IMG/VR virus record: IMGVR_UViG_3300032753_000003
Location: 96,001 to 160,000 of that record
DNA from: a virus
Length of the DNA stretch: 64,000 nucleotides
Reading direction: 5' to 3' (one strand)
Within the stretch, counting starts at the first letter, position 1; each line of letters opens with the position of its first letter. Made by a program: the position numbers and the translations under genes. Below the pieces are notes generated by a model. It had not been told where the DNA came from. It saw nothing but the letters and a program-made list of their open reading frames with translations, and did no database searches. Of this stretch, positions 885-47,969 are shown in pieces.

Positions 885-915
885 TTGACACGATCTTTAA
901 CCGAGTGTATAAATA
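885..915 (+). promoter_or_regulatory. Composite sigma70/T4-late promoter for tRNA-array leader 1
   Basis: TTGACA 885-890, 17-nt spacer, TATAAATA 908-915. Confidence 0.8.
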
Positions 916-944
916 GAGATACGTTTAAAAGGGTTTAGTAAACT

Positions 945-1037
945 ATGCAACACCAGGTCAAACACCAGTTTAATATGGATTTGGAACGCGCCGCATGGTC
1001 GTATCTTACGATCTTGTACGGGGGTGTTGCAGTATGA
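945..1037 (+). CDS. Putative attenuator leader peptide 1 (30 aa)
   Basis: MQHQVKHQFNMDLERAAWSYLTILYGGVAV; lies between the promoter and the terminator. Confidence 0.7.
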   Translation: MQHQVKHQFNMDLERAAWSYLTILYGGVAV

Positions 1038-1064
1038 TGTGAATCGCACATCATATGTTACGCT

Positions 1065-1093
1065 AAACCCCCGGAGCAATCCGAGGGTTTTTT
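1065..1093 (+). terminator. Intrinsic terminator (attenuator 1)
   Basis: AAACCCCCGGA-GCAA-TCCGAGGGTTT followed by a T run. Confidence 0.8.
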
Positions 1094-1351: not shown

Positions 1352-1428
1352 CCGCCCATAGTTAACGTTGGCTATAATGCTGGTCCTTCAAACCGGAGTA
1401 GGGAGATCGACACTCCCTGGGCGGACCA
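1352..1428 (+). tRNA. tRNA-Glu(UUC), atypical C33 and T-loop AUCGACA
   Basis: Acceptor CCGCCCA/TGGGCGG, loop CCTTCAA, U11:A24, 4-nt variable region, CCA. Confidence 0.7.
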
Positions 1429-1437
1429 ATTCAAATT

Positions 1438-1515
1438 GCAAGGTGAGCTAGTTTGGTAATTCAGCGTCCCGCTGAAGACGGGAAGAACTCAGTTCGATTC
1501 TGAGACCTTGCACCA
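1438..1515 (+). tRNA. tRNA-Phe(GAA)
   Basis: Cloverleaf, loop CTGAAGA, CCA. Confidence 0.9.
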
Positions 1516-1516
1516 T

Positions 1517-1801
1517 TTATATAGTAGTATCATCCAACCAACGCATGATAGCAAACTGTAACATCCTAACTGCATCCTGAGGTGATATGTCAAACCATTC
1601 ACCTTTTAAGCGTATATGGTTAAGTTCTTTGTGCAGTTTGCGTTCCAATATACGAACACGGTCTTGGGGTACAGCTTCAAAGTGATGTATTTTGAGCTTG
1701 GTTGGGTTGCCTGTTTGTAAGGTGGCTAGACGCTTATTAACGTCTTTGGTGAATCCAATTTTTTGATAATTGTCGTCTGTACCTATTACATAAATGAACA
1801 T
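1517..1801 (-). CDS. GIY-YIG family (T5orf172/MUG113-like) endonuclease
   Basis: IYVIG...KIGFT...RLATLQTGNP...LE..LH...GEWF motifs; start set at MFIYV. Confidence 0.8.
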   Translation of the reverse strand: MFIYVIGTDDNYQKIGFTKDVNKRLATLQTGNPTKLKIHHFEAVPQDRVRILERKLHKELNHIRLKGEWFDISPQDAVRMLQFAIMRWLDDTTI

Positions 1802-1842
1802 AATATGTAATAGTACAACACAATAATGTATAATCCAAATAT

Positions 1843-1927
1843 GGGCAAGCGGTGCAGTTAGAGAGGCACGGCGGTCTGTAAAACCGTTCCGTACGGTGAG
1901 TAGGTGCAAATCCTACCTTGCCTACCA
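1843..1927 (+). tRNA. tRNA-Tyr(GUA)
   Basis: Loop CTGTAAA, long V-arm, T-loop TGCAAAT, CCA. Confidence 0.88.
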
Positions 1928-1929
1928 AT

Positions 1930-2015
1930 TTGAGTGGCAACGTCTAGGATGACGGCCCCGGCAGGGGGTAGCTTGGTTCGAACCCAAGGTTGACAGGGAC
2001 GCCTGGTCTACTCAA
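1930..2015 (+). ncRNA. tRNA-like structured RNA lacking an anticodon loop
   Basis: 8-bp closing stem TTGAGTGG/CTACTCAA; D-like hairpin, CCCC-GGCA-GGGG, T-like TTGG-TTCGAAC-CCAA, and CAGG-GACG-CCTG. Confidence 0.45.
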
Positions 2016-2061
2016 TACAAAAACAAGGGCAGGATGACGAATCCGTAAGACCCATGAATTT

Positions 2062-2152
2062 GGGGAGTACAATAAGGTCAGGCTGGTGCCGACGCTGCGC
2101 TGTAAACGCAGTCCTTAGAGGCAAGAGGTTCGATTCCATCTGCTCCCCACCA
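2062..2152 (+). tRNA. tRNA-Tyr(GUA), second copy
   Basis: Loop CTGTAAA, long V-arm, CCA. Confidence 0.88.
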
Positions 2153-2157
2153 ATTAT

Positions 2158-2246
2158 GGAGTGCGTATCTAGCCGGGGATGCTAGCACGGTCTCGAACAC
2201 CGTAGGAGCCGCAAGGCCAGGGGATCAATACCTCACCACTCCGCCA
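2158..2246 (+). tRNA. tRNA-Ser(CGA)
   Basis: Loop CTCGAAC, long V-arm, G73, CCA; T-loop ATCAATA. Confidence 0.82.
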
Positions 2247-2249
2247 TTT

Positions 2250-2325
2250 GCTCTCATCATCTAGCGGCCAAGGATACTGCCCTCTCAAGGCAGGCACGCG
2301 GGTTCAAATCCCGCTGGGAGCGCCA
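2250..2325 (+). tRNA. tRNA-Glu(CUC)
   Basis: Loop CTCTCAA, canonical T-arm, CCA. Confidence 0.9.
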
Positions 2326-2348
2326 ATTGCAACCAAAGGAGAACCACA

Positions 2349-2522
2349 ATGAAACAAAAACCTAACAAAATACCAAAAGCTAGAAACATAATGGTATCAG
2401 CTGCAATGTTTCGCAAAGCAGGCGCACATGTCAAGACCAACAAAGCCAAACGTAAATCACTCAAGCAGGAGTTTCAGCGTAACCTACGCAACAACAACGA
2501 TTTGTATTTGATTGCATATTGA
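2349..2522 (+). CDS. Small basic hypothetical protein (57 aa)
   Basis: AAGGAG RBS; MKQKPNKIPKARNIMVSAAMFRKAGAH... Confidence 0.6.
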   Translation: MKQKPNKIPKARNIMVSAAMFRKAGAHVKTNKAKRKSLKQEFQRNLRNNNDLYLIAY

Positions 2523-2586
2523 GTTAGTATGCAATCAAATACAAATTAAATAGTTACAAATATTATTCAAAGTTGGATGTATTCAA

Positions 2587-3171
2587 ATGAAAATATCGGA
2601 AATAACTTATGCCGATACTATTCCGGAACTCAATATAACAGATACTAGTTTTGCACAACACCTAGGTCAAATTGACAACCGCGACGTTTGGCTAATATCA
2701 GATCATAACTATTTTATACCATTTTTTAAAGACGGCTATGATAAAATTGCGGCCTATATAGCATTTACAATTGCAGAACACGACGGATTTGTAGATCTTG
2801 CTAGAATACATAATAAATCAAATACAGCAGGATTAATAACAGCGTTATTGCAATTTGCTAGGAGTAAAGGATTTAAGTTTTGCATTCCAAACACCGAACC
2901 CTTAACTACAGATGGGTTTAATTGGTTGGCAAAATTAATAGCCGCAGGCGGACGAGGATTTAATATAACTGATCAAAATCATAAACAAGTTGATATCAAC
3001 AGTCTCAAACAGGAACGGGAGACTGCAAGAAAAACAGGATCCCCGGGTAAAACTTCAATTTTTATTGAAGGACGTATTGATACCGATATAGGACAATCAC
3101 TACTAGAAAAATATCCCAGTGCATTGCTGAAACCAACTATTAGATTTATTGGCGACACAACATTAGATTAA
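2587..3171 (+). CDS. Hypothetical protein with MKISE N-terminus
   Basis: 194-aa ORF; TAAATA upstream. Confidence 0.7.
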   Translation: MKISEITYADTIPELNITDTSFAQHLGQIDNRDVWLISDHNYFIPFFKDGYDKIAAYIAFTIAEHDGFVDLARIHNKSNTAGLITALLQFARSKGFKFCIPNTEPLTTDGFNWLAKLIAAGGRGFNITDQNHKQVDINSLKQERETARKTGSPGKTSIFIEGRIDTDIGQSLLEKYPSALLKPTIRFIGDTTLD

Positions 3172-3179
3172 TAATTTTT

Positions 3180-3253
3180 GGGCTGTTAGTTAAGTGGGAT
3201 AACTTCGCCTCGGCATGGCGACATCGGGAGTTCAAATCTCCCACGGTCCACCA
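3180..3253 (+). tRNA. tRNA-Ala(GGC), atypical C33
   Basis: G3:U70 and A73; loop TCGGCAT; CCA. Confidence 0.82.
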
Positions 3254-3254
3254 C

Positions 3255-3329
3255 AGACACATAGCTTAGTGGTAAAGCGCCGTCCTGACTCGACGGAGAT
3301 TGATGGTTCGATCCCATCTGTGTCTACCA
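3255..3329 (+). tRNA. tRNA-Val(GAC)
   Basis: Loop CTGACTC, CCA. Confidence 0.9.
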
Positions 3330-3343
3330 CAATAGAAGTTTAT

Positions 3344-3427
3344 TCCTGGGTGGCGGAATGGTAAACGCACCTGACTGTTAATCAGACGCCGAAAGGCTTG
3401 CAGGTTCGAGTCCTGCTCCAGGAGCCA
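3344..3427 (+). tRNA. tRNA-Asn(GUU) with long variable arm
   Basis: Loop CTGTTAA, GCC-GAAA-GGC V-arm, G73, CCA. Confidence 0.82.
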
Positions 3428-3478
3428 AACAAACTATCGATCTTTGTGATAAATATTTTTATCACAGAGGTTTATACT

Positions 3479-4117
3479 ATGAAGATAAGCGAACTTGAAC
3501 GTAACTACATATCACAAAACGTACCTGATCCGCCTAGAGCTAAAGGTACATATAAGAACATAGTGCCTATGGTTATAGGGGATTATGAAGTTAGATACAA
3601 GAAGCAGCACGGATATACAGACATCAGTGTATGGGACAAGAATAACGGTGTTGCAGAACTTAGATTACAGCCTGCACAGTTCCAGGGTATTCAAGGTTAT
3701 CATGTAGCATGGGCATGATTGAATCCAAAATATAAAGGTCAGGGTATAGGATACGAGTTGTATAAAGGTTTAATTACACTGTGGAACATTACATTCATGC
3801 AAGCCGAAAGTCACAGTGCAGGCGCATCAAAGACCTGGGCACGACTAAGTCAAGAACCAAAAATATCGGCGTATGGGTTTGATATAAATGATCAGATTGT
3901 GTTTCCTGTGAAACCAAATGCAAGCAAGACAGAATTGGTATCCGCTAAAAAAGGTATAACCTTATATAATACATATTCTACCGCTCTAATGTTGTGCAAG
4001 CGAGGTAGCGCTAACGACAAGAGAATGGCAGATCTAATGGATAGAAGCATAAATCCTGCTAAGGTAAAGCCAGACTTGTTTGGTAACAAAACTTTCCATC
4101 CTTTGGAAAAATATTAA
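3479..4117 (+). CDS. GNAT-fold acetyltransferase-like protein split by in-frame TGA at 3716-3718
   Basis: Motif A NPKYKGQGIGYELY; colinear paralogue at 15937..16530 is uninterrupted. Confidence 0.7.
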
Positions 4118-4141
4118 TATAACTTGTATAACACATCTTAT

Positions 4142-4239
4142 TGCTGTGTAAGCTTTGGGCGTTTCGCGATCCCGAAGATATAGGATACTGACGTCAGTTT
4201 CGCAACAAAATGCATGTGAAACTCATGCCACAGCAGCCA
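4142..4239 (+). ncRNA. tRNA-like RNA with expanded anticodon region
   Basis: Acceptor TGCTGTG/CACAGCA plus GCCA end; T-arm GCATG-TGAAACT-CATGC; 30-nt loop in place of the anticodon loop. Confidence 0.5.
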
Positions 4240-4341
4240 AATTTACCGTTGACACTATCTGCAGAGATGCTATTATCTTATTGTTGGTATTGCAAATTAC
4301 TTTGCATTTGGAGATAACTGTGATGCACCAGTAACAGATTT

Positions 4342-4419
4342 GGACCGTTAGCTGAGTTGGTTCTAGCGGGAGGCTCTTAACCTCCGTCTACGTAGGTTCA
4401 AATCCTACACGGTCTACCA
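4342..4419 (+). tRNA. tRNA-Lys(CUU)
   Basis: Loop CTCTTAA, CCA. Confidence 0.92.
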
Positions 4420-4427
4420 AAGTTAAT

Positions 4428-4503
4428 GGACCCTTAGCTCAATAGGTAGAGCAGTGGACTTTTAATCCAAAGGCTGCCGGTTCAAGTCCGGCAGGGTCTA
4501 CCA
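4428..4503 (+). tRNA. tRNA-Lys(UUU)
   Basis: Loop CTTTTAA, CCA. Confidence 0.92.
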
Positions 4504-4831
4504 AACGATCCCCATGTGCAAACATAGAGGGTCTTGCAGATAGCTTAGAGCTATAACTGGACAATAGTAACTGTTGCAGTTGCAAGCGTATGCTGAAGTA
4601 CGAAACCGTTCAGTATGCTCGATGATGTGAAGCGAGCAGTCACTAGCTTGGCTAAAGGGTATGTTACCCATGCTAATAACAGTTGACAGTGTCGTTAAAG
4701 ACGTTATTATATAGATGTTGAGATTGAAACGGTAAGATCCATATTAGAGGCTAGGACGCAACGGCGACTCAAGCGCTGAGATTGGAAAACTGTGCAGGCG
4801 GGGAAGGGGGCCAAGCACGGAAACGAGATTT

Positions 4832-4906
4832 GGACTGGTAGCTCAAAGGAGGAGCAGCCCGCTCATAACGGGAAGGTTGAGATATCATAATTCTCCCGGT
4901 CCACCA
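4832..4906 (+). tRNA. tRNA-CAU (Met or Ile2)
   Basis: Loop CTCATAA, T-loop ATCATAA, CCA. Confidence 0.75.
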
Positions 4907-4915
4907 TTATACAAC

Positions 4916-4993
4916 GCCCTGTTAGCCCAACTGGCTAGAGGCGCCTGCCTCAGGAGCAGGATGTTGCTGGTTCGAATCCAGTGCAGGGCACCA
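4916..4993 (+). tRNA. tRNA-Leu(CAG) with short variable region
   Basis: Loop CTCAGGA, 5-nt V region, A73, CCA. Confidence 0.8.
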
Positions 4994-4998
4994 ATATT

Positions 4999-5086
4999 GC
5001 GCTTGTGGAGAAATGTTTGGTATACTCGCTGTCTTGAGGAGGCAGTGCCGCAAGGATTGTGGGTTCAAATCCCACCAAGCGCACCA
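4999..5086 (+). tRNA. tRNA-Leu(GAG)
   Basis: Loop TTGAGGA, long V-arm, CCA. Confidence 0.88.
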
Positions 5087-5093
5087 AGAATAG

Positions 5094-5175
5094 GCCCGGG
5101 TAGAGAAATGGTAAACTCAGGAGTCTCAAAAACTCCCGCGCAAGCTTGTCGGTTCGAGTCCGACCCCGGGCACCA
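5094..5175 (+). tRNA. tRNA-Leu(CAA)
   Basis: Loop CTCAAAA, V-arm, CCA. Confidence 0.9.
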
Positions 5176-5291
5176 AAGTTTAGAGCCAGCCATAGGCTCA
5201 GGGTATGTCCTATACCCAGCATCAACGGCATGATGCTTAATGTGCGCAGTGCGAGCATGACTGCAATCATATGGACGACTATGAGTAATGA

Positions 5292-5379
5292 TCAGGGATA
5301 GTTTAATTGGTAAAACTCCAGACTCTGACTCTGGCAACAGATAATGCTAGTCCACGTTCGAATCGTGGTCCCTGAACCA
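5292..5379 (+). tRNA. tRNA-Gln(CUG) with long unpaired variable region
   Basis: Acceptor TCAGGGA/TCCCTGA, loop CTCTGAC, insert CAACAGATAATGCTAGT. Confidence 0.8.
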
Positions 5380-5406
5380 ATCAATAAATATTGTAGGAGG
5401 TGTATC

Positions 5407-5619
5407 ATGAAAACTGTTATTGTAGTTAGGCCGCGCGGCGGATGGCGATATGGATTTCCCAAGACATTGCCACCTGAAGACGATGTAGTCTGGACCAACA
5501 AGCAACACCTAAACTTCAAAGAGAAATTGGTTTGGTGGTTGCGTTATCAAAATTATCCAGATTGGTTGATCAAGAGTATTGGAGATTTAAACAACATACT
5601 TGAATTTAATCAAGTATAA
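5407..5619 (+). CDS. Hypothetical phage protein (GWRYGFPK motif)
   Basis: AGGAGG RBS before ATG 5407. Confidence 0.7.
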   Translation: MKTVIVVRPRGGWRYGFPKTLPPEDDVVWTNKQHLNFKEKLVWWLRYQNYPDWLIKSIGDLNNILEFNQV

Positions 5620-5621
5620 TT

Positions 5622-5704
5622 TGAGGATGTAGTTCAATTAGTAGAACTGCTAACTTTGACTCTGGCAACAGATAATGCTAGTCCATGTTTGAATCGTTGT
5701 CCAT
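5622..5704 (+). pseudogene. Chimeric, degenerate tRNA-Gln(UUG)
   Basis: 5' half with loop CTTTGAC joined to a copy of the 3' half of tRNA-Gln(CUG); stems broken; no CCA. Confidence 0.65.
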
Positions 5705-5717
5705 AAAACAATTATAT

Positions 5718-5907
5718 TTGCTGTAGACAATGCAGTGATCTAGTGGAATTCCTGTGACTACGGCTGCGACGGCGGCGGGCAGGAGTTGCGATATCCGTTC
5801 TGTGTCAGCTTAGGTGCGCACCCAAGCTGTTACTAGATTGGAGAATGCTTAAGATACGATCCGCGGAGGCTCGAAACACCCAGGTAGATCTGCATTGTCT
5901 ACAGCAA
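5718..5907 (+). ncRNA. Unknown ~190-nt structured RNA
   Basis: Perfect 18-bp terminal stem 5718-5735/5890-5907 enclosing GC-rich hairpins. Confidence 0.6.
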
Positions 5908-5915
5908 TATGTATG

Positions 5916-6067
5916 TTCGGGATGGGGAAATGGTATACCCGCCGGCGTGAAGGCTGGAGGTTGTAACAGGTACGGTGAGTTTTACCAGTAGTAAGCTGCA
6001 GACGAGGCTGGTAGCAAGAGACGTATGTCTGACAACGTTGTAGGTTCGAGTCCTACTCCCGACACCA
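5916..6067 (+). ncRNA. tRNA-like RNA (152 nt) with very large variable-arm insertion
   Basis: Acceptor TTCGGGA/TCCCGAC plus ACCA, Leu-type D-arm, canonical T-arm, 6-nt loop GTGAAG, ~80-nt branched insert. Confidence 0.65.
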
Positions 6068-6068
6068 C

Positions 6069-6142
6069 AGGGGTGTAGTTCAAAGGAAGAATAATAGTCT
6101 CCAAAACTATCGATGCAGTGTCAGGATCTGCCACCCCTGCCA
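6069..6142 (+). tRNA. tRNA-Trp(CCA) with U11:A24 and T-loop GUCAGGA
   Basis: Loop CTCCAAA, G73, CCA. Confidence 0.82.
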
Positions 6143-6154
6143 ATAAATATCAAC

Positions 6155-6325
6155 ATGAAAATGTCAGAGATATCAAAACCCATGACTATCAGAAGCGCTA
6201 CTGACAGCCACGGCAATGTAAGTAGAGCCAAAGCTGAACGCATATATGATCCCAAGGGTTGGTTCAAAAAGAACAAGAGCAGGATAAGCAAGAGATTTAA
6301 GCCTGCAGGCGGCTCTGTTAGTTAA
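6155..6325 (+). CDS. Small basic protein with MKMSE N-terminus; stop lies inside tRNA-Thr
   Basis: TAAATA immediately upstream; 56 aa. Confidence 0.55.
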   Translation: MKMSEISKPMTIRSATDSHGNVSRAKAERIYDPKGWFKKNKSRISKRFKPAGGSVS

Positions 6326-6385
6326 GTGATATAACAGCTGATTCGTAACCAGCAATCGACAGTTTGATTCTGTCACGGAGCACCA
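6312..6385 (+). tRNA. tRNA-Thr(CGU)
   Basis: Loop TTCGTAA, CCA. Confidence 0.82.
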
Positions 6386-6391
6386 ATCAAT

Positions 6392-6468
6392 GCCAGTGGG
6401 GAGGTAGTGGATATCTCACCATCCTCATAAGGTGGCTAAACAGATTTCGAGTATCTGCACCGGCACCA
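6392..6468 (+). tRNA. tRNA-CAU (probably Met)
   Basis: Loop CTCATAA, canonical T-arm, CCA. Confidence 0.75.
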
Positions 6469-15815: not shown

Positions 15816-15918
15816 GCGGGTGTAGCTCAGCGGTAGAGCGCAACCTTGCCTAAGCACATTCTGAGCAGTGTGCTTAACAAGGTTGATGTCGAGAGTTCGA
15901 TCCTCTTCGCCCGCTCCA
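15816..15918 (+). tRNA. tRNA-Gly(GCC) with 28-nt hairpin insert in the anticodon loop
   Basis: U73 and CCA; CAACC-TTGCC[15851-15878]AA-GGTTG. Confidence 0.85.
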
Positions 15919-33190: not shown

Positions 33191-35128
33191 ATGACCAATA
33201 TCTTTGACGATATCTTGCAAGAACAGAAAACCAAAAAGCGAGAAACATTTGGCTTTATAGATTGGTTGAAGCTATGCAAGAAGGATCCAAATACATATGC
33301 ATCTGCAGCAGAACGTATGTTAGCTGCAATAGGCGAACCAGAAACAGTAGATACCAGTAAGGATCCTCGACTAAGTAGGATATTCTTAAATCGCACATTG
33401 CGAGTATATCCCGCGTTCAGCGATTTCTATGGCATGGAAGAAACTATAGAAAGAATAGTTGGATACTTCAGGCATGCTGCACAGGGTCTAGAAGAAAAGA
33501 AGCAGATCCTATATCTACTTGGTCCAGTTGGCGGCGGTAAGAGCAGCTTAGCCGAACGCCTCAAGGAACTAATCACCAAACTTCCATTCTACGTTTTAAC
33601 AGCCGAAGACGGAACTCTTAGCCCCGTGTTTGAGAGCCCGCTAGGTGTTTTTGATCCCAACAAGCATGCTGCTAGATTGCAAAAAGATTATGGTATAGAT
33701 TCTAGATATCTAACAGGTATCATGAGTCCCTGGGCAGTCAAGAGGCTTGCAGAATATGACGGCGATGTAAGTCGCTTCAAAGTCACAAAGGTTTGGCCCA
33801 GCAAGCTAGAACAAATTGGTGTTGTTAAAACTGAACCAGGCGACGATAACAACCAAGACATCAGCAGCCTAGTTGGCAAGACCAACATACGCATGCTAGA
33901 GCATTTTAGCCAAAATGATCCAGACAGTTATTCATTCTCTGGAGCACTATGCCGTGGTAATCAGGGCATTATGGAATTTGTTGAAATGTTCAAAGCACCA
34001 ATCAAAATGCTGCATCCTCTGCTAACTGCTACGCAGGAAGGCAATTATATAGGTACTGAAGCTATTTCAGCTATACCTTTTACAGGTATTGTGCTAGCAC
34101 ATAGCAACGAAGCAGAATGGCAGAGTTTCAAAAACAACAAGAACAACGAAGCATTCATTGATCGTATCTATGTTGTCAAAGTACCATACTGCCTACGCAT
34201 CACTGATGAGACCAAGATCTATGAGAAGATGCTGGAACACAGCAGCTTAGGCAATGCCAATTGCGCGCCTCAGACACTTGATATGCTCAGCAAGTTCTGC
34301 GTATTGACTAGGTTAACACCCCATGAGAACAGCAGTGCATACAGCAAGATGCGAGTCTATGACGGAGAGACCATAAAGGATGTTGATCCAAAAGCTCGTA
34401 GCATGCAGGAATATCGTGATGCTGCAGGTGTTGATGAAGGCATGAGTGGTATCAGCACTCGCTTTGCATTCAAAGTGCTCAGCAAGACATTTAACTTTGA
34501 TCCAAATGAGATAGCAGCAGATCCTGTTCATCTCATGTATGTATTAGAAGACAGCATCCGCAGAGAGCAATTCAGTACCGATACAGAAGAGAAGTACATA
34601 AACTTCATCAAAGACTATCTGTCTCCCAAGTATGCTGAATTCATCGGCAATGAAATACAAAAAGCCTATCTTGCAAGTTATTCTGAATTTGGACAATCAA
34701 CTTTTGATAGGTATATTGAATATGCTGACGCATGGATACAAGAAATAGACTATAAGGACCCAGATACAGGTAATCTCTATGATAGAGATATACTTAACAA
34801 AGAATTAGAGAAAATTGAAAAACCAGCAGGCATAGCTAATCCAAAAGATTTTAGGCACGAAGTCGTTAACTTTGTATTAAGGGCTAGAGCAAGGAACGGC
34901 GGAATTGTAGTATGGACTAGCTATGAGAAACTTCGAGATGTTATCGAGAAGAAGATGTTTGCAAGTGTAGAAGATCTACTTCCGGTAATTAGTTTTGAAA
35001 GTAAAAAAGATAGAGATGTTGAAGTAAAACATGTTGATTTTGTTAATAGAATGATTGAGCGTGGATATACAGAAAAACAGGTGCGACGATTAGTTGAATG
35101 GCACATGAGAGTACAAAAATCAAGCTAA
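33191..35128 (+). CDS. prkA: PrkA/YeaG AAA+ serine kinase
   Basis: LLGPVGGGKSS, KTEPGDDNNQDIS, FVEMFKAPIK. Confidence 0.96.
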   Translation: MTNIFDDILQEQKTKKRETFGFIDWLKLCKKDPNTYASAAERMLAAIGEPETVDTSKDPRLSRIFLNRTLRVYPAFSDFYGMEETIERIVGYFRHAAQGLEEKKQILYLLGPVGGGKSSLAERLKELITKLPFYVLTAEDGTLSPVFESPLGVFDPNKHAARLQKDYGIDSRYLTGIMSPWAVKRLAEYDGDVSRFKVTKVWPSKLEQIGVVKTEPGDDNNQDISSLVGKTNIRMLEHFSQNDPDSYSFSGALCRGNQGIMEFVEMFKAPIKMLHPLLTATQEGNYIGTEAISAIPFTGIVLAHSNEAEWQSFKNNKNNEAFIDRIYVVKVPYCLRITDETKIYEKMLEHSSLGNANCAPQTLDMLSKFCVLTRLTPHENSSAYSKMRVYDGETIKDVDPKARSMQEYRDAAGVDEGMSGISTRFAFKVLSKTFNFDPNEIAADPVHLMYVLEDSIRREQFSTDTEEKYINFIKDYLSPKYAEFIGNEIQKAYLASYSEFGQSTFDRYIEYADAWIQEIDYKDPDTGNLYDRDILNKELEKIEKPAGIANPKDFRHEVVNFVLRARARNGGIVVWTSYEKLRDVIEKKMFASVEDLLPVISFESKKDRDVEVKHVDFVNRMIERGYTEKQVRRLVEWHMRVQKSS

Positions 35129-35862
35129 TGGTGCGTACAGGTCATCTATATAAGATTACTAGGTTGTCAACCGGTGAATACTATTACGGTATTCACCGGG
35201 GTGACAAATTTGACGGATACTGAGGCAGCGGGCGTATTATTAGAAATTATATTAAAACACACGGAACAGATGATTTAATCTATGAGATCATAGCAATAGG
35301 ATCATACGATGAAATGATTAAGCTTGAGGAACAGATAGTTAATGTTGATGAAATATCAAAAGAACTATGTTGGAATTTAAAAACAGGCGGATATAGAGGT
35401 TTACCTTCCAATGAATCGAGGATGCTTATATCTAAGGCCGGATTGGGTCGTAGATATTCAAAAGATAGGACTGATAAGATACAAAAATCTAGAGCGTTGC
35501 GAATAAAAGAAATTGGTCAAAAGATATCAGAATCCAATCGAGGTCAAATTAGATCTAATGAAGCTAGAAAAAAGATATCTGATCGAAAAAAAGAGAAGAT
35601 GACTCCCGAAATAAGAAAAAGAATATCTGCAGCAAAATTAGGAACATCTAATCCAGCTTGGCTGGGATATGTGAAGACGCCAGATGGTATATTTGAGAGC
35701 TCTATGGTTGCAGCATTGTATTACGGCAAGACAGATAAGACCATACGAGATAGGATCAAAAGTATAAATCCAAAATTTAACGGTTGGATGTTTATAAAAA
35801 CACTTGATATGGTATCTAAGATAATATCTAGGTCTGATATAAGAGGAGACGTAGGTGAGTGA
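35128..35862 (+). pseudogene. Seg-like GIY-YIG/NUMOD homing endonuclease with in-frame TGA at 35221-35223
   Basis: HLYKITRL..EYYYGIH...DGY*GSG in frame with the 35314 ORF; overlaps prkA stop and yeaH start. Confidence 0.75.
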
Positions 35863-37126
35863 TTATCATATAATCGATAGACGAGAAAATCCCAAAGGCA
35901 AGAACCTTCCAAACAGGCAAAAATTCCTCAGGAAGGTTCGCGATCATCTCAAAACGCAAGTAAGAGATGCTATGGGCAAAAAGAAGATAACAGACACGGG
36001 CGGAACTGACATATCAGTACCGTCTGATGGTATCAACGAGCCTAGCTTTGATTACGACCGCAGCACTGGCGAATGGGACAGAATACTACCCGGCAACAGA
36101 GACTTTGTTGCCGGCGATCGAGTAAAAAAGCCGGATCAAAGTGGCGGCGGCGGCGGCGGAAGCAAAGCAGGCAAAGGTGGAGAAGGTGAGGATGATTTTA
36201 AATTCACTCTCACCCGCGACGAATACCTAGATATGGTGTTTGAAGATCTAGAACTACCCGATTTGGTCAAGACCAGCGAAAAGGCTGCAGTGGCTTGGCA
36301 TCGCATGCGTTCTGGATTCAAAACAGATGGCAGTCCCAGCCAACTTGATCTAGTACGCAGCCTGAAGAACAGTTTGGGTAGGAGACTGGCTCTTCGCAAA
36401 CCGATAGAAAATAAAATAGAAAATCTAGAGAAGATGTTAGAGGATGCCGATGAAGATCTATCTAACAAATTACAAGAAGAGATAGAAGGCCTCAAACGTA
36501 AAAAATCTGCGGTTCCTTGGGTAGATCCAATAGATTTACGCTATCGTAGATGGGATCAAAGACCAATACCAAACAGCCAAGCAGTGATGTTCTGCCTTAT
36601 GGACGTTAGCGGCAGTATGGGCGATAGAGAAAAAGAAATAGCCAAGAGATTTTATCTGTTGCTGTATTTGTTCCTTGAACGCCAATATGAAAAAGTACAA
36701 ATTGTGTTTGTAAGACATACAGATGTTGCTAAGGAAGTAGATGAGCAAGAATTCTTCTATGGAACAGAAAGCGGCGGAACAATTGTCAGTAGCGGATTAC
36801 AATTAGTGCATGACATTATAAATGAGAGATATCCAACTGACGCATGGAACATATATGTTGTGCAGGCATCAGACGGAGATAATTTCCCCAGTGACAACGA
36901 CGATTGTACTGAGTTAATGGGCAAGATTCTGCCTCTTGTGCAATATTATGTCTATGCAGAAGTAAAATCATATAATCCAATGTTTCAGAATTCTACCAAC
37001 CTTTGGGATATGATGGAAAGATTGGTGCGCAACTACGAGCAATTGGCGGTGGTATCAATACCATCTGTTGATAGAGTAGTGTCTATATTCAGGCAAGTGT
37101 TTGCCAAGGAGAGAACTAATGGTTGA
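35855..37126 (+). CDS. yeaH: YeaH/YhbH (DUF444, vWA) protein
   Basis: IDRR.N...NRQKF, AVMFCLMDVSGSM, QASDGDN. Confidence 0.95.
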   Translation: MSDYHIIDRRENPKGKNLPNRQKFLRKVRDHLKTQVRDAMGKKKITDTGGTDISVPSDGINEPSFDYDRSTGEWDRILPGNRDFVAGDRVKKPDQSGGGGGGSKAGKGGEGEDDFKFTLTRDEYLDMVFEDLELPDLVKTSEKAAVAWHRMRSGFKTDGSPSQLDLVRSLKNSLGRRLALRKPIENKIENLEKMLEDADEDLSNKLQEEIEGLKRKKSAVPWVDPIDLRYRRWDQRPIPNSQAVMFCLMDVSGSMGDREKEIAKRFYLLLYLFLERQYEKVQIVFVRHTDVAKEVDEQEFFYGTESGGTIVSSGLQLVHDIINERYPTDAWNIYVVQASDGDNFPSDNDDCTELMGKILPLVQYYVYAEVKSYNPMFQNSTNLWDMMERLVRNYEQLAVVSIPSVDRVVSIFRQVFAKERTNG

Positions 37127-38594
37127 ACCTTTGTTCACTAGTAACGAATGGGACTTTGATTTAATACGTCGTGCTATGGACGAATGCGGCATAATAGCTA
37201 GAGAAGAGCTGCGGCTCAACACCTATGAAAATCAAATTGAAATAGTAACTAGCGAACAAATGCTCGATGCATATGCAAGTTCAGGTTTACCTGTTATGTA
37301 TAAGCATTGGAGCTTTGGTAAGAAATTTAGCCATGAACGAGATCTATATCAAAAAGGCAAGCGAGGGTTGGCTTACGAACTGGTGTTGAATACTCAACCC
37401 ACAATCAATTACCTCATGGAAGAAAATACAGCTTGCATGCAAGTATTGGTTATAGCGCATGCTGCATACGGCCACAATCATGTATTCAAAAATAACTACA
37501 TGTTCAAACAATGGACTGATGCAGAAAGCATCGTTGACTATCTAATATTTGCAAAAAACTACATACAAAAATGCGAAGAACGTTATGGTGAAGATGTTGT
37601 GGAAGCCACACTCAATGCTGCGCATTCTCTAATGATGAACGGTATAGATCGTTACAAGAGGCCTAGAAAGCTCAGTATGGTTGAGGAACAGCTAAAACAA
37701 AAAGAACGCACAGAATATCTAGAACGCACAGTCAACGATCTGTGGAGGACTATTCCAAAAACTGAGCAAGATAAGGAAGAATATCCAAAGGGTAGATTTC
37801 CTGCAAACCCAGAAGAAAATATATTGTATTTCTTAGAGAAGAATAGCCCTGTACTAGAGACTTGGCAGCGAGAAATATTGCGTATAGTAAGAAAGTTAGC
37901 TCAATATTTCTATCCACAGTATCAGACCAAAGTACTAAACGAAGGTTGGGCTAGTTTTACGCACTATTACATAATGAATCGTTTGCATGACAAAGGGTTA
38001 CTAACAGACGGTGCTATGCTGGAGTTTTTACAGTCACATACCAGTGTGCTATTTCAACCCACATATGATAAACCCTACTACAACGGGCTAAACCCTTACT
38101 ATCTAGGATTTGAGATATTTGCAGACATACGCAGAATGTGTGAGAATCCAGACGATGAGGATAGAGAACTATTCCCACTTATTGTGGGTACAGATTGGGT
38201 AGATACTTGCCTAGATGCTGTTGCTAACTATCGCGACGAAAGTTTCATACGTCAATTCTTAGGACCAAAAGTAGTTCGCAAGATGAAATTGTTTAGATTG
38301 GTTGACGACAAACGAGAAGAAACCTATCTTATCAGTGCTATTCAAAATCGAGAAGGTTTCCGTGAAATAAGGAACAGTCTTGCCAACAGCTATGAACTTG
38401 ATGAATGGTGTCCAAAGATTGAAGTTACCGATGCTGACATAAAAGGCGATAGAACTTTGACTCTAACCTATCATAGAGAACACGGAAGGTCTATGGCAGA
38501 TAGCTGGAAGCCTGTAATGAAGCATGTTAGACACCTCTGGGGTCATAACGTCAAGCTGGTTACCAAAAGAGGTAATGTTATAGGAGAGATTTGA
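37119..38594 (+). CDS. spoVR: SpoVR/YcgB family protein
   Basis: HWSFGK, LAYELV, AHAAYGHNHVFKNN, TKVLNEGWAS. Confidence 0.95.
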   Translation: MVEPLFTSNEWDFDLIRRAMDECGIIAREELRLNTYENQIEIVTSEQMLDAYASSGLPVMYKHWSFGKKFSHERDLYQKGKRGLAYELVLNTQPTINYLMEENTACMQVLVIAHAAYGHNHVFKNNYMFKQWTDAESIVDYLIFAKNYIQKCEERYGEDVVEATLNAAHSLMMNGIDRYKRPRKLSMVEEQLKQKERTEYLERTVNDLWRTIPKTEQDKEEYPKGRFPANPEENILYFLEKNSPVLETWQREILRIVRKLAQYFYPQYQTKVLNEGWASFTHYYIMNRLHDKGLLTDGAMLEFLQSHTSVLFQPTYDKPYYNGLNPYYLGFEIFADIRRMCENPDDEDRELFPLIVGTDWVDTCLDAVANYRDESFIRQFLGPKVVRKMKLFRLVDDKREETYLISAIQNREGFREIRNSLANSYELDEWCPKIEVTDADIKGDRTLTLTYHREHGRSMADSWKPVMKHVRHLWGHNVKLVTKRGNVIGEI

Positions 38595-41600: not shown

Positions 41601-41876
41601 GGGCTTTGGTTATGGTTAAATGGAAATATTATCATAAACAATGACGATGTTGGTAACGATAGCTACGATGTTGCATTAACAGCAGGTAAGAAATATAGTT
41701 GGCAATTGGATATGGAACACGAGGAAAACGAAGGGTTCGAGTATCCTTTTTATGTAACTGCTTATTGGAAAGGTCCTACTGTTCCAAAACTAACAGTAAT
41801 ACCATCTAGTGCGTTCTGCTTTGATCCAAATAATCCACCTCCTGCAAAATTACCGGTTGACAAAGTTAACGATTGA
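38640..41876 (+). CDS. Modular virion/fibre protein (structural N-terminus, PA14-like, Gly-rich, Pro linker, IPT/TIG, PA14)
   Basis: ARFFFNSGG; GGGGG-rich block; PVP repeats; ITPTSGPTTGG..TISGNNF; CTRWLGYIEVP..GTWTF. Confidence 0.7.
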   Translation: MTYSSGNIIASSDFNSFRGPYNINQAYTTPSSAIDVATSLIGIGIGDRGYGQPTPLISSAVSWNEITHTEWNALQSAMSNINIHTGSNLNLQPVVFSGNVIIPENGIDVSATSNISINLESLDHNRLLFDNSQMITNAAISSTMTQSWSGNIVHEFTVDFGTEDSARFFFNSGGAIILSANLYGSSNNVSDAYIGGLLSSSGNVYVNAYDVSTDGDGFVIGGGYYTLTKLYSTVFANYVYSPDQNLPPDQIVSSTVYQTLNSIPYWSDFMNQYAVWIDQGDTPIQPGIWHTSHRTFTPDNTGYYTFTYQGGQSMKVWCDNSLVDIVNSTNAAPSSSTLYLSAQEHVIRFDCCTDPSKPITSWSDNPVGWACTVTDSNSNIVWDTRTYSLEETITYDPSTFVGEEPVSTQSFSYSSANTLQTFVVPPNVTKITAKLWGPGGAGGPNFNGITKVYDGGAGVFVQATIPVTPGETLIISIGGGGLAGQIGTSPLGEDCIGGGGGGFTAIYRGTEPLVIAGGGGGSPANNHRTDLDAGWGGNAGIIEGFHGVSCTGNVVATGGSQTQGGLGQNGIFGSWLKGASGGYTNPYDNGGINSGGPGGGTWGAAGGGAGYWGGGAGDAQDPNVSTSRSSCGGGGGSSYISQSSTNSIGCISRDRITAPMNLDPDCNENVGCGGQCGKKKGDNGYDGGGGAVVIYCINETAPDTPYSWTIQAKTDNYVGLNEANGSLLHFKSIISTGSSSVMVDGTTASNVSRRKASGVLTIAEPIFSTINALSNIPIPVPVQSPLLGPATTPVPTPNPLPAPVPVPTPTAIPIPTVLSITPTSGPTTGGAQTTISGNNFIGATTVNFGSTAATSFSVTNSTTITSVTPAGTVGTVNVSVTTSSGTGTGINLFTYVAPPLPSPACVPSNIYTAVYSYPQPGWTGTPVLTFDNLLPINITLNNRQEMLNYFGIPNDSSTITNSWCTRWLGYIEVPASGTWTFTLNHSHGLWLWLNGNIIINNDDVGNDSYDVALTAGKKYSWQLDMEHEENEGFEYPFYVTAYWKGPTVPKLTVIPSSAFCFDPNNPPPAKLPVDKVND

Positions 41877-41887
41877 TTGTATAAATA
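41857..41887 (+). promoter_or_regulatory. Composite sigma70/T4-late promoter for leader 2
   Basis: TTGACA 41857-41862, 17-nt spacer, TATAAATA 41880-41887. Confidence 0.8.
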
Positions 41888-41910
41888 CATTTAACATAGG
41901 AACTGTAAAA

Positions 41911-41979
41911 ATGATGACTCGACCAATGACACAACCTACTACATGCCCACGCTGTGGGAACGGGGGTTCTGTGACTTGA
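41911..41979 (+). CDS. Putative attenuator leader peptide 2 (22 aa)
   Basis: TAGGA RBS; MMTRPMTQPTTCPRCGNGGSVT. Confidence 0.75.
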   Translation: MMTRPMTQPTTCPRCGNGGSVT

Positions 41980-42007
41980 GCTAGTTATCTAATAGCTAAA
42001 GTTTAAC

Positions 42008-42043
42008 AAACCCTCGAAACGAAAGTTTCGAGGGTTTTCTTTT
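42008..42043 (+). terminator. Intrinsic terminator (attenuator 2)
   Basis: AAACCCTCGAAAC-GAAA-GTTTCGAGGGTTT followed by a T-rich tail. Confidence 0.88.
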
Positions 42044-42068: not shown

Positions 42069-42141
42069 CAGGGTAAAGCTCGTGCTAGAAGAGCACCGCT
42101 CTCGGAAAGCGGAGGTTGGTGGGCAGAACACCATACCCTGA
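42069..42141 (+). tRNA. tRNA-Pro(CGG), T-loop GGCAGAA, A37, no encoded CCA
   Basis: C1:G72, A73; loop CTCGGAA. Confidence 0.72.
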
Positions 42142-42211
42142 CATCAAGTGTGTTATTTGTATAAATAACTGAGACGTTATACAAATAACACACTTTATAT
42201 AATGAGGCCAG

Positions 42212-42799
42212 ATGTTTTATACAGTATACAAAATAACAAATATAGTAAATGAGAAATATTATATAGGTAAGCATCAAACTAAAGAGTTAGATGACAATTA
42301 TATGGGATCAGGTAAAGCATTAAAGGTTGCTATAAACAAATACGGTATTGAAAGTTTCAAAAAGGAAGTACTTTACATATTTGATAATGAATCAGACATG
42401 AACGCTAAGGAAAAAGAATTAGTTGTTATAAATGACCAAACATACAATTTATGCGACGGCGGAAAAGGTGGGTTCTCTTATATCAATAGAAATAAATTGA
42501 ATGTAGCACATATAACAACTGAAAATGCAAAAGAATTAAGTAGGAAAGCAAACGAAGCTAAGTTACATAAGGCTAAAACTGACCCAGCATGGAAGGAAGA
42601 ATATAATAAGAAATTAAGTGACTCACGACGTGGAAATAAAAATCACAGGTATGGTAAACCTGCGTCGAACAAAGGTAAAAAATTAAGTAATGAGGTGCGA
42701 GAGCGAATGCGATTGGCATCTATTAAGCGCGAAGCTGAACGAAGAGAGTCAGGGTATTATTTAGAAAAATATCCAAAAAAAGATAGGAATGTACACTAA
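42212..42799 (+). CDS. Seg-like GIY-YIG homing endonuclease with NUMOD3-like motifs
   Basis: TVYKITN..KYYIGKH...YMGSG; TATAAATA at 42160. Confidence 0.9.
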   Translation: MFYTVYKITNIVNEKYYIGKHQTKELDDNYMGSGKALKVAINKYGIESFKKEVLYIFDNESDMNAKEKELVVINDQTYNLCDGGKGGFSYINRNKLNVAHITTENAKELSRKANEAKLHKAKTDPAWKEEYNKKLSDSRRGNKNHRYGKPASNKGKKLSNEVRERMRLASIKREAERRESGYYLEKYPKKDRNVH

Positions 42800-42827
42800 G
42801 AAGTATTATATATAGATTGAAAATTTA

Positions 42828-42901
42828 GCTCTTATAGTTAAATGGTATAACAGTTGCCTTGTAAGCATCAATTCCTAGTTCGATTCTAGGTGGGAGCACC
42901 A
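42828..42901 (+). tRNA. tRNA-Thr(UGU)
   Basis: Loop CTTGTAA, CCA. Confidence 0.9.
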
Positions 42902-42906
42902 AATTT

Positions 42907-42985
42907 GCCGTCGTAGCTCAACTGGAATTAGAGCGCTGGTCTACGAAACCGGAGGTTGGGGGTTCGAGTCCCTCCGACGGCACCA
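42907..42985 (+). tRNA. tRNA-Arg(ACG)
   Basis: Loop CTACGAA, CCA. Confidence 0.93.
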
Positions 42986-42990
42986 TTAAT

Positions 42991-43064
42991 GTTCCGGTGG
43001 CAGAGTAGTAATGTGCCAAGCTGCAACCTTGGTTATGAGTGTGCGATTCACTCCCGGAACTCCA
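42991..43064 (+). tRNA. tRNA-Cys(GCA), T-loop TGCGATT
   Basis: Loop CTGCAAC, U73, CCA. Confidence 0.85.
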
Positions 43065-45812: not shown

Positions 45813-47969
45813 TTAATTATAATATACCGACCAATTTTTTGCGATAAGGTTAGCCAAAGCTGATGCACTAGCTCCTGTTGGTGATCCGTTTGAACCGCCG
45901 CTTAGATCCACATAACCAAAAGATTGACCATATGTATCTAACAATATTATTATGTTATCAACTGCAGTTGAAGTCAAAGAGTTGCTGCCAAAATATAAAG
46001 TTTTTAAAGAATAACATCCTGTAATATCAACTGTAGTCAGTAAATTCTCAATACAACTTAATGTTGAAAGTGATTGATTATTGTTAAGAGACAACGTTGT
46101 TAATGAATTGTTAAAACAAGATACTATGTTCCAACCAACAGGTATAGAAAGTGTAGAAAGAGCGCAACTATAGCAGTAGAGTTCAGTTGATGTATTGGAA
46201 GTCTTTGCAGCACCCAATGTCAAAGTACCCAAACTTGAGTTATTTGATACGTCTAGATATGTCAACGACAATATGCTAACATCAAGAGTTGTAAAAGAAT
46301 TGTTATTTAAGGTTAAACTTGTTAATGCTGTATCTCCGTAAAAATCAATAGAAGATAATGAGTTGTGGCTTGCATCTACTGTGGTAAGCAGTGGTTTACC
46401 GCTAATGCTCAGAGACGTTAAACTATTATTATTACAAAACAGTGAAGTTAACGGTGTATTAGCCAAATTTAACGAAGTGATAGAATTATAATTGCAATAT
46501 ACAGTTGCTAGATAATGCAGCGAAGATAAGTCTAAGCTGGTTATTGAGTTAGATTCGCAACTGAGATAATTCAAATAGGTAGTACTTGAAAAGTCTAATG
46601 CAGTTAGAGAATTACTACCACAATATAATGTATATAATCCGGAACATCCTGCTAATGTTAAACTGGTTAAACTGTTTGACATACAACGGAGTGAACAATT
46701 GAACGAAGTAAAACAGTTGGTTGCATCTAAACTTGTGAGCAAATTATTGGAACATTCTAAATAGACTAGAGATCCATTTATATTATCAAGTGTTAAGGTT
46801 GTTAGTTGGTTTGTTTGGCAATACAATAACTGTAACGAGGAACATGTGGAAACATCTAGTGTTGAAATTGTGTTATACGAACAATTAATGTATACTAATG
46901 AAGTATCATTGGCGACATTTAATGATGTCATAGACGGATAATTATCGAAACATTTTAGATTGTATAAATTAGTAAATCCAGATAGATCAATAGTTGATAT
47001 TCCGGTGTAAGAAATATTTAATGTTTCTAAACTTGAATCGCCAGTCAAAGTAAGTGATGTTAACGAAGTGTTAAATGATAAATCAAGATATGTAAGATTT
47101 GATAATCCCGTAGCATCAACTGCGGTCAAATTGTTATCATTGCAATCTAAATAAGTTAAGCTAGTGCATCCGGCAACATTCAAATTGGTCAAATCGTTAT
47201 AATAGGCTTTTACAGTTGTTAAATTAGTCATGCTACCTAGATCTAATGACTGCAAATTGTTATTATTACATATCAACGTTCGTAAAATTGGAGCAGCATT
47301 TGCAGTCAAAGATGTTAGTCGATTTTCATAGCATGTCAATGTAGTTAGTGCCGTTAACCCTGTTAGATCGATCGTTGTTAGCAGGTTTGAAGCTACATTT
47401 ACATTTGATAAAACAATGTCGCCGGTTAGATTTATTGTGCTGAGTTGATTTCCTTCGGCACCTATGTAATTCAATGATGTGCAATTTGAAACATCTAGAG
47501 ATGTAAAATTGTTATTAACAACATACCTGCTATTAGGATCGTGGAATGCTCCCATAACTAGTTGTTCTAGTTGTCGATCATTAGCAAAGCTTACAGCACC
47601 AGAGAAACCGCCGCCTTCTAGATAAACATACTGATAATTAGGGCCCGTAGGTCCAGTTGGTCCGGTTGGACCGGTTGCACCTGCACCCATACTTGAACCG
47701 GGAGGTCCAGGAGGTCCTGGAGGTCTTTCTGCACCTGCAGGACCAGTTGGGCCATAATTACCGGTTGCTACAGTACAATTTATAACAACGTCAGCAGAAC
47801 CGCTATCGATAATAGCATTGCCAGTTACATCACCGGTTAATGTGATATGTTTACCTTGGAGAGCTTCGATCTCAGTCTTAATAGTACTGAAATTGTCCCT
47901 GAACCCTCGGCTGCTTTGATCAATGCCTGGTATTGGAAAGTTTGGATTTACTCTGCTGATTGCTACCAT
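45813..47969 (-). CDS. Leucine-rich-repeat fibre-like protein with short collagen stretch
   Basis: NPNFPIPGIDQSSRGFRDNF N-terminus, GPPGPPG, roughly 25 internalin-like LxCxxNxLxxL repeats. Confidence 0.8.
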   Translation of the reverse strand: MVAISRVNPNFPIPGIDQSSRGFRDNFSTIKTEIEALQGKHITLTGDVTGNAIIDSGSADVVINCTVATGNYGPTGPAGAERPPGPPGPPGSSMGAGATGPTGPTGPTGPNYQYVYLEGGGFSGAVSFANDRQLEQLVMGAFHDPNSRYVVNNNFTSLDVSNCTSLNYIGAEGNQLSTINLTGDIVLSNVNVASNLLTTIDLTGLTALTTLTCYENRLTSLTANAAPILRTLICNNNNLQSLDLGSMTNLTTVKAYYNDLTNLNVAGCTSLTYLDCNDNNLTAVDATGLSNLTYLDLSFNTSLTSLTLTGDSSLETLNISYTGISTIDLSGFTNLYNLKCFDNYPSMTSLNVANDTSLVYINCSYNTISTLDVSTCSSLQLLYCQTNQLTTLTLDNINGSLVYLECSNNLLTSLDATNCFTSFNCSLRCMSNSLTSLTLAGCSGLYTLYCGSNSLTALDFSSTTYLNYLSCESNSITSLDLSSLHYLATVYCNYNSITSLNLANTPLTSLFCNNNSLTSLSISGKPLLTTVDASHNSLSSIDFYGDTALTSLTLNNNSFTTLDVSILSLTYLDVSNNSSLGTLTLGAAKTSNTSTELYCYSCALSTLSIPVGWNIVSCFNNSLTTLSLNNNQSLSTLSCIENLLTTVDITGCYSLKTLYFGSNSLTSTAVDNIIILLDTYGQSFGYVDLSGGSNGSPTGASASALANLIAKNWSVYYN

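Follow-up and report, generated by a model that had tools for sequence, protein, structure and literature searches.

Why phages carry tRNA genes has remained an open question for more than 50 years (PMC10264068). The locus studied here raises that question in a specific form: does a short leader reading frame, located between a promoter and a phage tRNA array, control the transcription of that array, and do its codons list the tRNAs that follow? The window (i.e. the whole stretch of DNA that was analysed, 64,000 nucleotides) comprises positions 96001-160000 of a 199,865-bp IMG/VR virus record (40% GC; ~39% complete). The record belongs to an uncultured phage and contains a match to a Gp23-type capsid; the source virus is a jumbo phage.

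The anatomy described in an earlier note on this DNA was recovered in full. The unit consists of a promoter (885-915, + strand; -35 TTGACA at 885, 17-nt spacer, TATAAATA at 908), a leader ORF of 30 codons (945-1037, +) that uses 18 amino acids and lacks only Cys and Pro, a hairpin over the stop codon (1033-1055, +; -9.5 kcal/mol) and an intrinsic terminator that is predicted, not mapped (1065-1093, +; regions 3:4 plus U-run; -13.6 kcal/mol). The two pairings proposed earlier, 1020-1025 with 1067-1072 and 931-938 with 1063-1070, involve segments as described and their duplexes are supported by folding. The former constitutes the core of an antiterminator in which region 2 (1019-1031, +) pairs with 1062-1073 (duplex -19.1) around the nested hairpin. 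With respect to the latter, folding alone predicts that, in the absence of a ribosome, a 5' segment (931-939, +) is able to form a duplex with the 5' arm of the terminator at 1063-1070 (-13.7 kcal/mol). In addition, region 1, the start-codon segment (945-954, +), can pair with 1023-1031 in untranslated RNA (duplex -15.9). The RNA from 915 to 1100 is more stably folded than its shuffles (z -3.2), and the ribosome-binding site of the leader is weak (-4.5 kcal/mol).

The signals of the unit are rare in the record. The promoter form of 885 occurs at just two sites in the 200 kb, 885 and 41857, each heading a leader. Its element TATAAATA, which is identical to the T4 late promoter, is itself not enriched in the record (17 occurrences versus 12-26 for permuted words). 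A scan of the record for strong hairpins followed by a T-run yielded 7 sites, among which 1065-1093 is the only one found in the tRNA region; the scan missed the terminator of the second unit described below, which has an interrupted T-run.

Close relatives of the unit were hardly found. Three other assemblies of the source phage are identical for 700 nt from 885, so that they offer no leader variation to test. A blastn search with 880-1520 found no relative among cultured phages, the exact terminator is absent elsewhere in IMG/VR, and neighbouring proteins led to no related loci, the sole homologue (P0002) having a different context. Promoter-anchored scans returned just L024/L026 or chance matches, and blastn matches in T5-like, Vibrio and Xanthomonas phages were discarded as plain terminators or promoters. 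No close orthologue with a leader that is both alignable and varying was found in these scans. The 5' region of the unit does have a homologous counterpart in L024, and hairpins like 1033-1055 occur at the equivalent place in L024, L305, L322 and L323.

The two folds proposed for the leader RNA behave as mutually exclusive states when computed. The nascent RNA was folded to 1076 while ~12 nt, counted from the A-site of a ribosome, were masked. Under these conditions the antiterminator, in which 1019-1031 is paired to the 5' arm of the terminator around the 1033-1055 hairpin, has a probability of ~1.0 for a ribosome at codons 1-22 and of 0 from codon 23. According to this folding model only codons 1-22 would be capable of sensing, which narrows the earlier view of the leader as a sensor. 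When the full terminator is included, the terminator is favoured at equilibrium in all ribosome states, so that any switch has to operate kinetically. In RNA free of ribosomes, 1023-1031 is bound by 945-954, where trp-type attenuators have a protector hairpin that leads to termination of untranslated leaders, but 931-939 then takes up the 5' arm of the terminator and read-through is predicted (at equilibrium and for one length only); failed initiation may thus also induce the array.

What lies downstream had to be established by more than one method. In the window ARAGORN reports 34 tRNAs, each of them on the + strand, and misses Ser(CGA), Trp and several others that are present. Rfam together with folding added Tyr (2063), Ser(CGA) (2157), a CAU tRNA (4832), Trp (6069), Ala(UGC) (10274), Ser(UGA) (14338) and Pro(CGG) (42069). 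The first tRNA (1352) is separated from the terminator by ~260 nt of structured RNA (1103-1349, +; z -3.9, two long hairpins) of no known kind and without a match in Rfam. Block 1a follows (1352-3427, +) and encodes Glu(UUC), Phe, two Tyr, Ser(CGA), Glu(CUC), Ala(GGC), Val(GAC) and Asn, and then block 1b (4342-6468, +) with two Lys, two CAU tRNAs, three Leu, Gln(CUG), Trp and Thr(CGU). Two sigma70-like sites, at 4249 and 4683, lie upstream of block 1b and inside what had been called the first block, the part that is matched best. Consequently, the set of tRNAs gated by the leader is not fixed, and block 1b could be transcribed from these internal sites independently of the switch.

Several elements of the array deviate from ordinary tRNA genes. 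At 1932-2010 a tRNA-like RNA has a T-arm, an extra hairpin and a closing stem without a normal anticodon loop. The tRNA-like gene at 5915-6067 carries a CCA end, a 6-nt anticodon loop and a variable arm of ~90 nt, and may derive from either a His or a Ser tRNA. The Gln(CUG) tRNA (5292-5379) has a hairpin in its variable region and is followed by a second, degenerate copy, the loop of which reads UUG (5622-5705). In a tRNA-Gly(GCC)-like gene (15816-15918) a 28-nt hairpin is inserted directly 3' of the anticodon; the Gly codons of the leader fall outside its sensor part. Among the protein-coding genes, a member of the MKISE paralogous family (start 3479; 3508-4117) appears to be split by an in-frame TGA at ~3716-3718, the ORFs 3398-3718 and 3719-4117 abutting in frame. 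A three-gene cluster at 33191-38594 (genome 129191-134594), the middle gene of which matches YeaH/YhbH, is common to Ralstonia phage RsoM2USA and huge phages and is probably PrkA-YeaH-SpoVR. Outside the window, at genome positions 46529-46604, lies a tRNA with a CUA anticodon (amber suppressor-like) that is also found in RsoM2USA, XacN1 and Xoo-sp13.

A comparison of the leader with the blocks revealed a correspondence. The 21 codons of the sensor part (2-22) stand for 16 different amino acids, versus 12.05 in gene windows (p 0.015), and cover 7/8 anticodons of 1352-3427 and, with the 5915 element counted as His, 15/18 of those of 1352-6468, where gene windows reach 6.7; block 1b is thus matched despite its own upstream sigma70-like sites. 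No codon is present for Glu(CUC), Lys(CUU) and Leu(CAG). The longest amino-acid run in the sensor consists of two Ala, and without tandem control codons a mild shortage of a single tRNA may give little signal.

The choice of synonymous codons in this leader supports a stricter reading, a refinement of attenuation in which each codon monitors one specific anticodon of the array. The 15/18 matches exceed what is expected for the same peptide with the codon usage of the genome (11.1, p<5e-5) or with uniform synonymous choice (11.7, p 0.004). When the 5915 element is dropped and codons are drawn from the other leaders of the family, 14/17 remain versus 9.96 (p 3.5e-4), so that a match no better than controls, which would have refuted the proposal, is not what is seen for leader 1. 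Moreover, the leader uses TCG, ACG and GTC, which the genome seldom employs (5-10% within the respective codon families). The GC-ending codons that had drawn attention to the leader amount to a GC3 of 16/29 (p 0.02 to 0.07), in a genome that is only mildly AT-rich (40% GC, GC3 34%). Against these figures stands the fact that six block limits were tried and the boundary was picked after looking; with the whole tRNA set as target the synonymous signal fades (p 0.06).

The same record contains a second attenuator (41857-42043, +), which has the promoter form of unit 1, a leader of 22 codons (41911-41979) and a terminator of -20.7 kcal/mol. Its antiterminator, 41962-41968 with 42009-42015, folds with a probability of 1.0 when the ribosome is at codons 1-14 and of ~0 from codon 15. 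Downstream lies tRNA block 2 (42069-43064, +), in which Pro(CGG) is separated by a gene of 195 codons from Thr(UGU), Arg(ACG) and Cys. Residues 3-15 of leader 2 are Thr, Pro, Arg or Cys in 11/13 cases (background 0.167, P 1.6e-7), whereas the sensor of leader 1 has only 2/21 of these; the Cys and Pro that are missing there are supplied by leader 2. The adjacent Pro(CGG) does not decode the Pro codons of leader 2 (CCA and CCT), and therefore the match of this leader is one of amino acids, which speaks against a strict monitoring of isoacceptors.

To what extent the arrangement is general can be judged from its relatives. A search pattern made of the antiterminator core and the terminator, in which no tRNA information was used, was applied to IMG/VR. 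Among the matches listed, a tRNA is found within 600 nt downstream in 33/67 non-redundant loci, versus 0/101 for a control with the terminator only, and with a second tail variant of the motif 40/57 loci head tRNAs, again among the matches listed. In bacterial genomes the motif precedes tRNAs in only 2/78 of the matches listed, which include leaders with the Trp, Val or Leu runs that are typical of trp/ilv/leu attenuators. A contig of 7 kb in a Campylobacterota genome bin (L432) carries at 3164-3230 a leader-attenuator before 12 tRNAs, the leader being rich in Leu, Thr, Tyr, Trp and Phe; the contig may be phage or chromosomal. Among the matches listed, a short ATG ORF that stops 3-24 nt past the antiterminator core accompanies 58/68 of the tRNA-heading elements versus 4/49 of the others. 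Covariation of the antiterminator helix continues outside the cores used for searching, where own pairs reach -14.6 kcal/mol and permuted pairs -10.7 kcal/mol (sd 0.24), an effect that is absent in the non-tRNA loci. The proposed attenuator architecture is thus supported by exclusive folds, helix covariation and controls.

The relatives also allow the correspondence between leader and array to be evaluated. In 48 de-duplicated units the fraction of array anticodons with their amino acid in the leader is 0.88 for the own leader versus 0.79 for swapped leaders (sd 0.014, p<5e-5); for blocks of up to 12 anticodons the values are 0.88 and 0.71, and for larger arrays the difference is slight. Loci were de-duplicated without correction for a tree, and locus ends truncate many of the blocks. 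No such signal exists in frames +1/+2 or in gene windows, and judged from sequence alone this frame specificity is the best indirect evidence for translation of the leader. Near-exact matches occur in small blocks (L058, L273, L328, L353, L020 and L119). For instance, L058 has seven Ser codons ahead of four Ser tRNAs, so that runs of control codons are present in some relatives, and the H/S/F/K/W leader of L273 matches repeated His, Phe, Lys, Trp and Ser tRNAs. The peptide sequence is not conserved, and a Shine-Dalgarno sequence is present in just 13/48 members.

At the level of isoacceptors, in contrast, two family-wide tests gave no support (z 0.63 in one); tRNAs with C34 do not raise the use of G-ending codons (7/35 versus 106/293). 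The checklist of tRNAs that was originally envisaged thus stands as a list of amino acids throughout the family, whereas a list of isoacceptors is supported statistically for leader 1 and neither for leader 2 nor for the family as a whole. Given this, we regard strict codon-by-codon monitoring as possible but rather unlikely.

An independent case is provided by a cultured phage. A motif-free scan of the heads of tRNA blocks in Ralstonia phage RsoM2USA (MG752970, minus strand) uncovered two unannotated leader attenuators. One, at 87361-87248, lies before Met, Ile, Asn, Gln, Lys, Arg, Phe, Ala, Val, Pro, Asp and Thr tRNAs (L524), and the other, at 112124-112047, before Pro, Cys, Glu, Tyr, Leu, Trp, Ser, His and Val tRNAs (L523). 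The sensor residues are represented in the own block in 28/28 and 17/18 cases, respectively (P 4e-6 and 2e-6), versus 1/28 and 3/18 in the swapped block. The amino-acid sets of the two leaders complement each other. For both units folding gives an antiterminator/terminator switch, the stems of which bear no relation to the search motif. The paper on this genome does not mention a leader, attenuation or a terminator (PMC8504454). No leader unit was detected before the arrays of XacN1 or Xoo-sp13 in the stretches examined, and hence leader attenuation is not universal.

Would a leader that merely reports the speed of translation, or its coupling to transcription, explain these data as well? A diverse leader could open the array upon any slowdown (antibiotic, shut-off, ribosome damage), its individual codons being irrelevant. 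Indeed, leaders exceed gene windows in diversity (15.3 versus 12.7 amino acids), large arrays show little own-versus-swapped signal, and read-through without a ribosome is predicted both here, through the 931-939 pairing, and in 42/48 relatives (equilibrium folding of one length only). Nevertheless, where two leaders are paired in one genome, the amino acids are divided between them exactly as between the corresponding blocks, and leaders with a single theme exist (L058 and L328). We consider this explanation improbable as a replacement for attenuation; general slowdown sensing is compatible with an attenuator as a second input. Less probable still is an ordinary small gene or small RNA followed by a constitutive terminator, in which the tRNAs are made from other promoters or through protein antitermination and the matches are due to chance. 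The terminator that wins at equilibrium, the further promoter-like sites within the array and the lack of peptide conservation would all fit, yet the association with tRNAs that is absent from the terminator-only control, the covariation, the fixed position of the stop and the frame-specific matching are left unexplained, and the promoter scan listed no + strand site between 1093 and 1352. T-box-like sensing, in which uncharged tRNA binds the leader RNA via codon-like specifier triplets, can point to such triplets and to a terminator/antiterminator ahead of translation genes, but hardly merits consideration, as Rfam reports no T-box match, the signal is confined to one reading frame with a start and a stop, and many specificities in one short RNA misfit a single specifier loop.

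We conclude that unit 1 is, with high probability, a ribosome-mediated transcription attenuator that exerts negative feedback on phage tRNA genes. This reading is based on the anatomy, the computed exclusive folds, the association with tRNA arrays, the helix covariation and the in-frame matching; translation, coupling and termination in vivo are inferred, as there are no expression data. In the proposed mechanism, RNA polymerase would start at ~920 and a ribosome would translate the leader behind it. With fast decoding the ribosome would move beyond codon 22 and cover 1020-1031, upon which the terminator would fold and transcription would stop at ~1093. A ribosome lagging at any of the codons 1-22 would leave 1019-1031 free to capture the terminator 5' arm, and the polymerase would read into the tRNA genes. 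As the sensor names each amino acid of the block once or twice, a shortage of any functional charged tRNA would switch the block on, and the newly made tRNAs would switch it off again. The natural signal is inferred to be the loss of host tRNA during infection, since extra tRNA cures tRNA loss but not a shortage of amino acids, since single, non-tandem control codons suit a severe loss, and since phage tRNAs have been linked to escape from tRNA-cleaving defences (PMC10264068, PMC11555353). Starvation would trip the switch as well, and the distinction between cleavage and starvation as the trigger remains an inference.

The unit shares its logic with the attenuators of the trp/his/thr/ilv type, of which hisL is a ribosome-mediated example and the thrL and ilvGMEDA leaders are multivalent. 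In all of these a short leader ORF has a 3' part that pairs with the terminator 5' arm, the position of the ribosome picks the fold, and the control codons correspond to what is provided by the genes that follow. The phage unit has a short leader ORF between the promoter and the regulated genes, an intrinsic terminator (predicted, not mapped) soon after the leader stop, an antiterminator that according to folding and covariation excludes the terminator and has its 5' strand covered by the ribosome near the stop, and control codons that match the function of the downstream genes. Leader 1 does without tandem stretches of control codons devoted to between one and three amino acids, and the targets of the unit are not genes for amino-acid biosynthesis or synthetases. 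In contrast to amino-acid operons, tRNA genes are controlled, and up to 16 amino acids are listed with one or two codons each. E. coli pheM-pheST comes close in that its leader responds to charged tRNA and governs a gene product by which the charged form is replenished; it differs in being cellular, in targeting a synthetase and in sensing a single amino acid. T-box riboswitches likewise let the status of a tRNA control a terminator/antiterminator, through direct binding of the tRNA to the RNA, with one specificity and without a translated ORF; neither a Stem I specifier loop nor the T-box antiterminator motif was detected here (Rfam, E<=1), and the attenuator region matches no Rfam family. 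Ribosome-mediated attenuation is documented for trpL (PMC4615214) and pheL (PMC3082878). The trp operon terminates when its leader is untranslated (PMC4615214), whereas equilibrium folding predicts read-through for the phage unit.

The nearest functional precedent is the trn operon (L-array) of Anabaena PCC 7120, a silent long tRNA array that is induced 100- to 1000-fold by translational stress (PMC8421152, PMC10272220). Its control is exerted by the ribbon-helix-helix repressor TrcR, not by a leader peptide, and is not codon-specific (PMC8421152, PMC10272220); the paper on the L-array does not mention attenuation or a leader. In phages, tRNAs counter tRNA-cleaving immunity, with an expression that is ascribed to a strong promoter and without mention of attenuation (PMC10264068; PMC11555353). 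Such counter-defence supplies the likely purpose of the unit, i.e. the replacement of destroyed host tRNA. Attenuation of phage or bacterial tRNA genes, and with it the application of trp-operon logic to tRNA genes, was not found in the literature, in line with the earlier note, with the proviso that coverage was incomplete (subscription papers).

By naming the amino acids of its block, a leader marks the tRNA genes as a response to a shortage in decoding and not as a constitutive codon supplement, and it allows one to measure which shortage each phage expects. The two units of RsoM2USA constitute a ready test system in a cultured phage, and leader units in general offer compact multi-tRNA biosensors. 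Attenuation is hereby extended to stable-RNA genes and to a logic of many inputs, and it appears widespread in large phages. More tentatively, and short of what we would call probable, large phages of many lineages may use one leader per tRNA block to audit the decoding capacity of the host. The block would open once any of the listed tRNAs is lost, or if the leader remains entirely untranslated, and would thus provide an inducible and self-limiting countermeasure to tRNA-destroying immunity, which in the phage studied here may even resolve isoacceptors.
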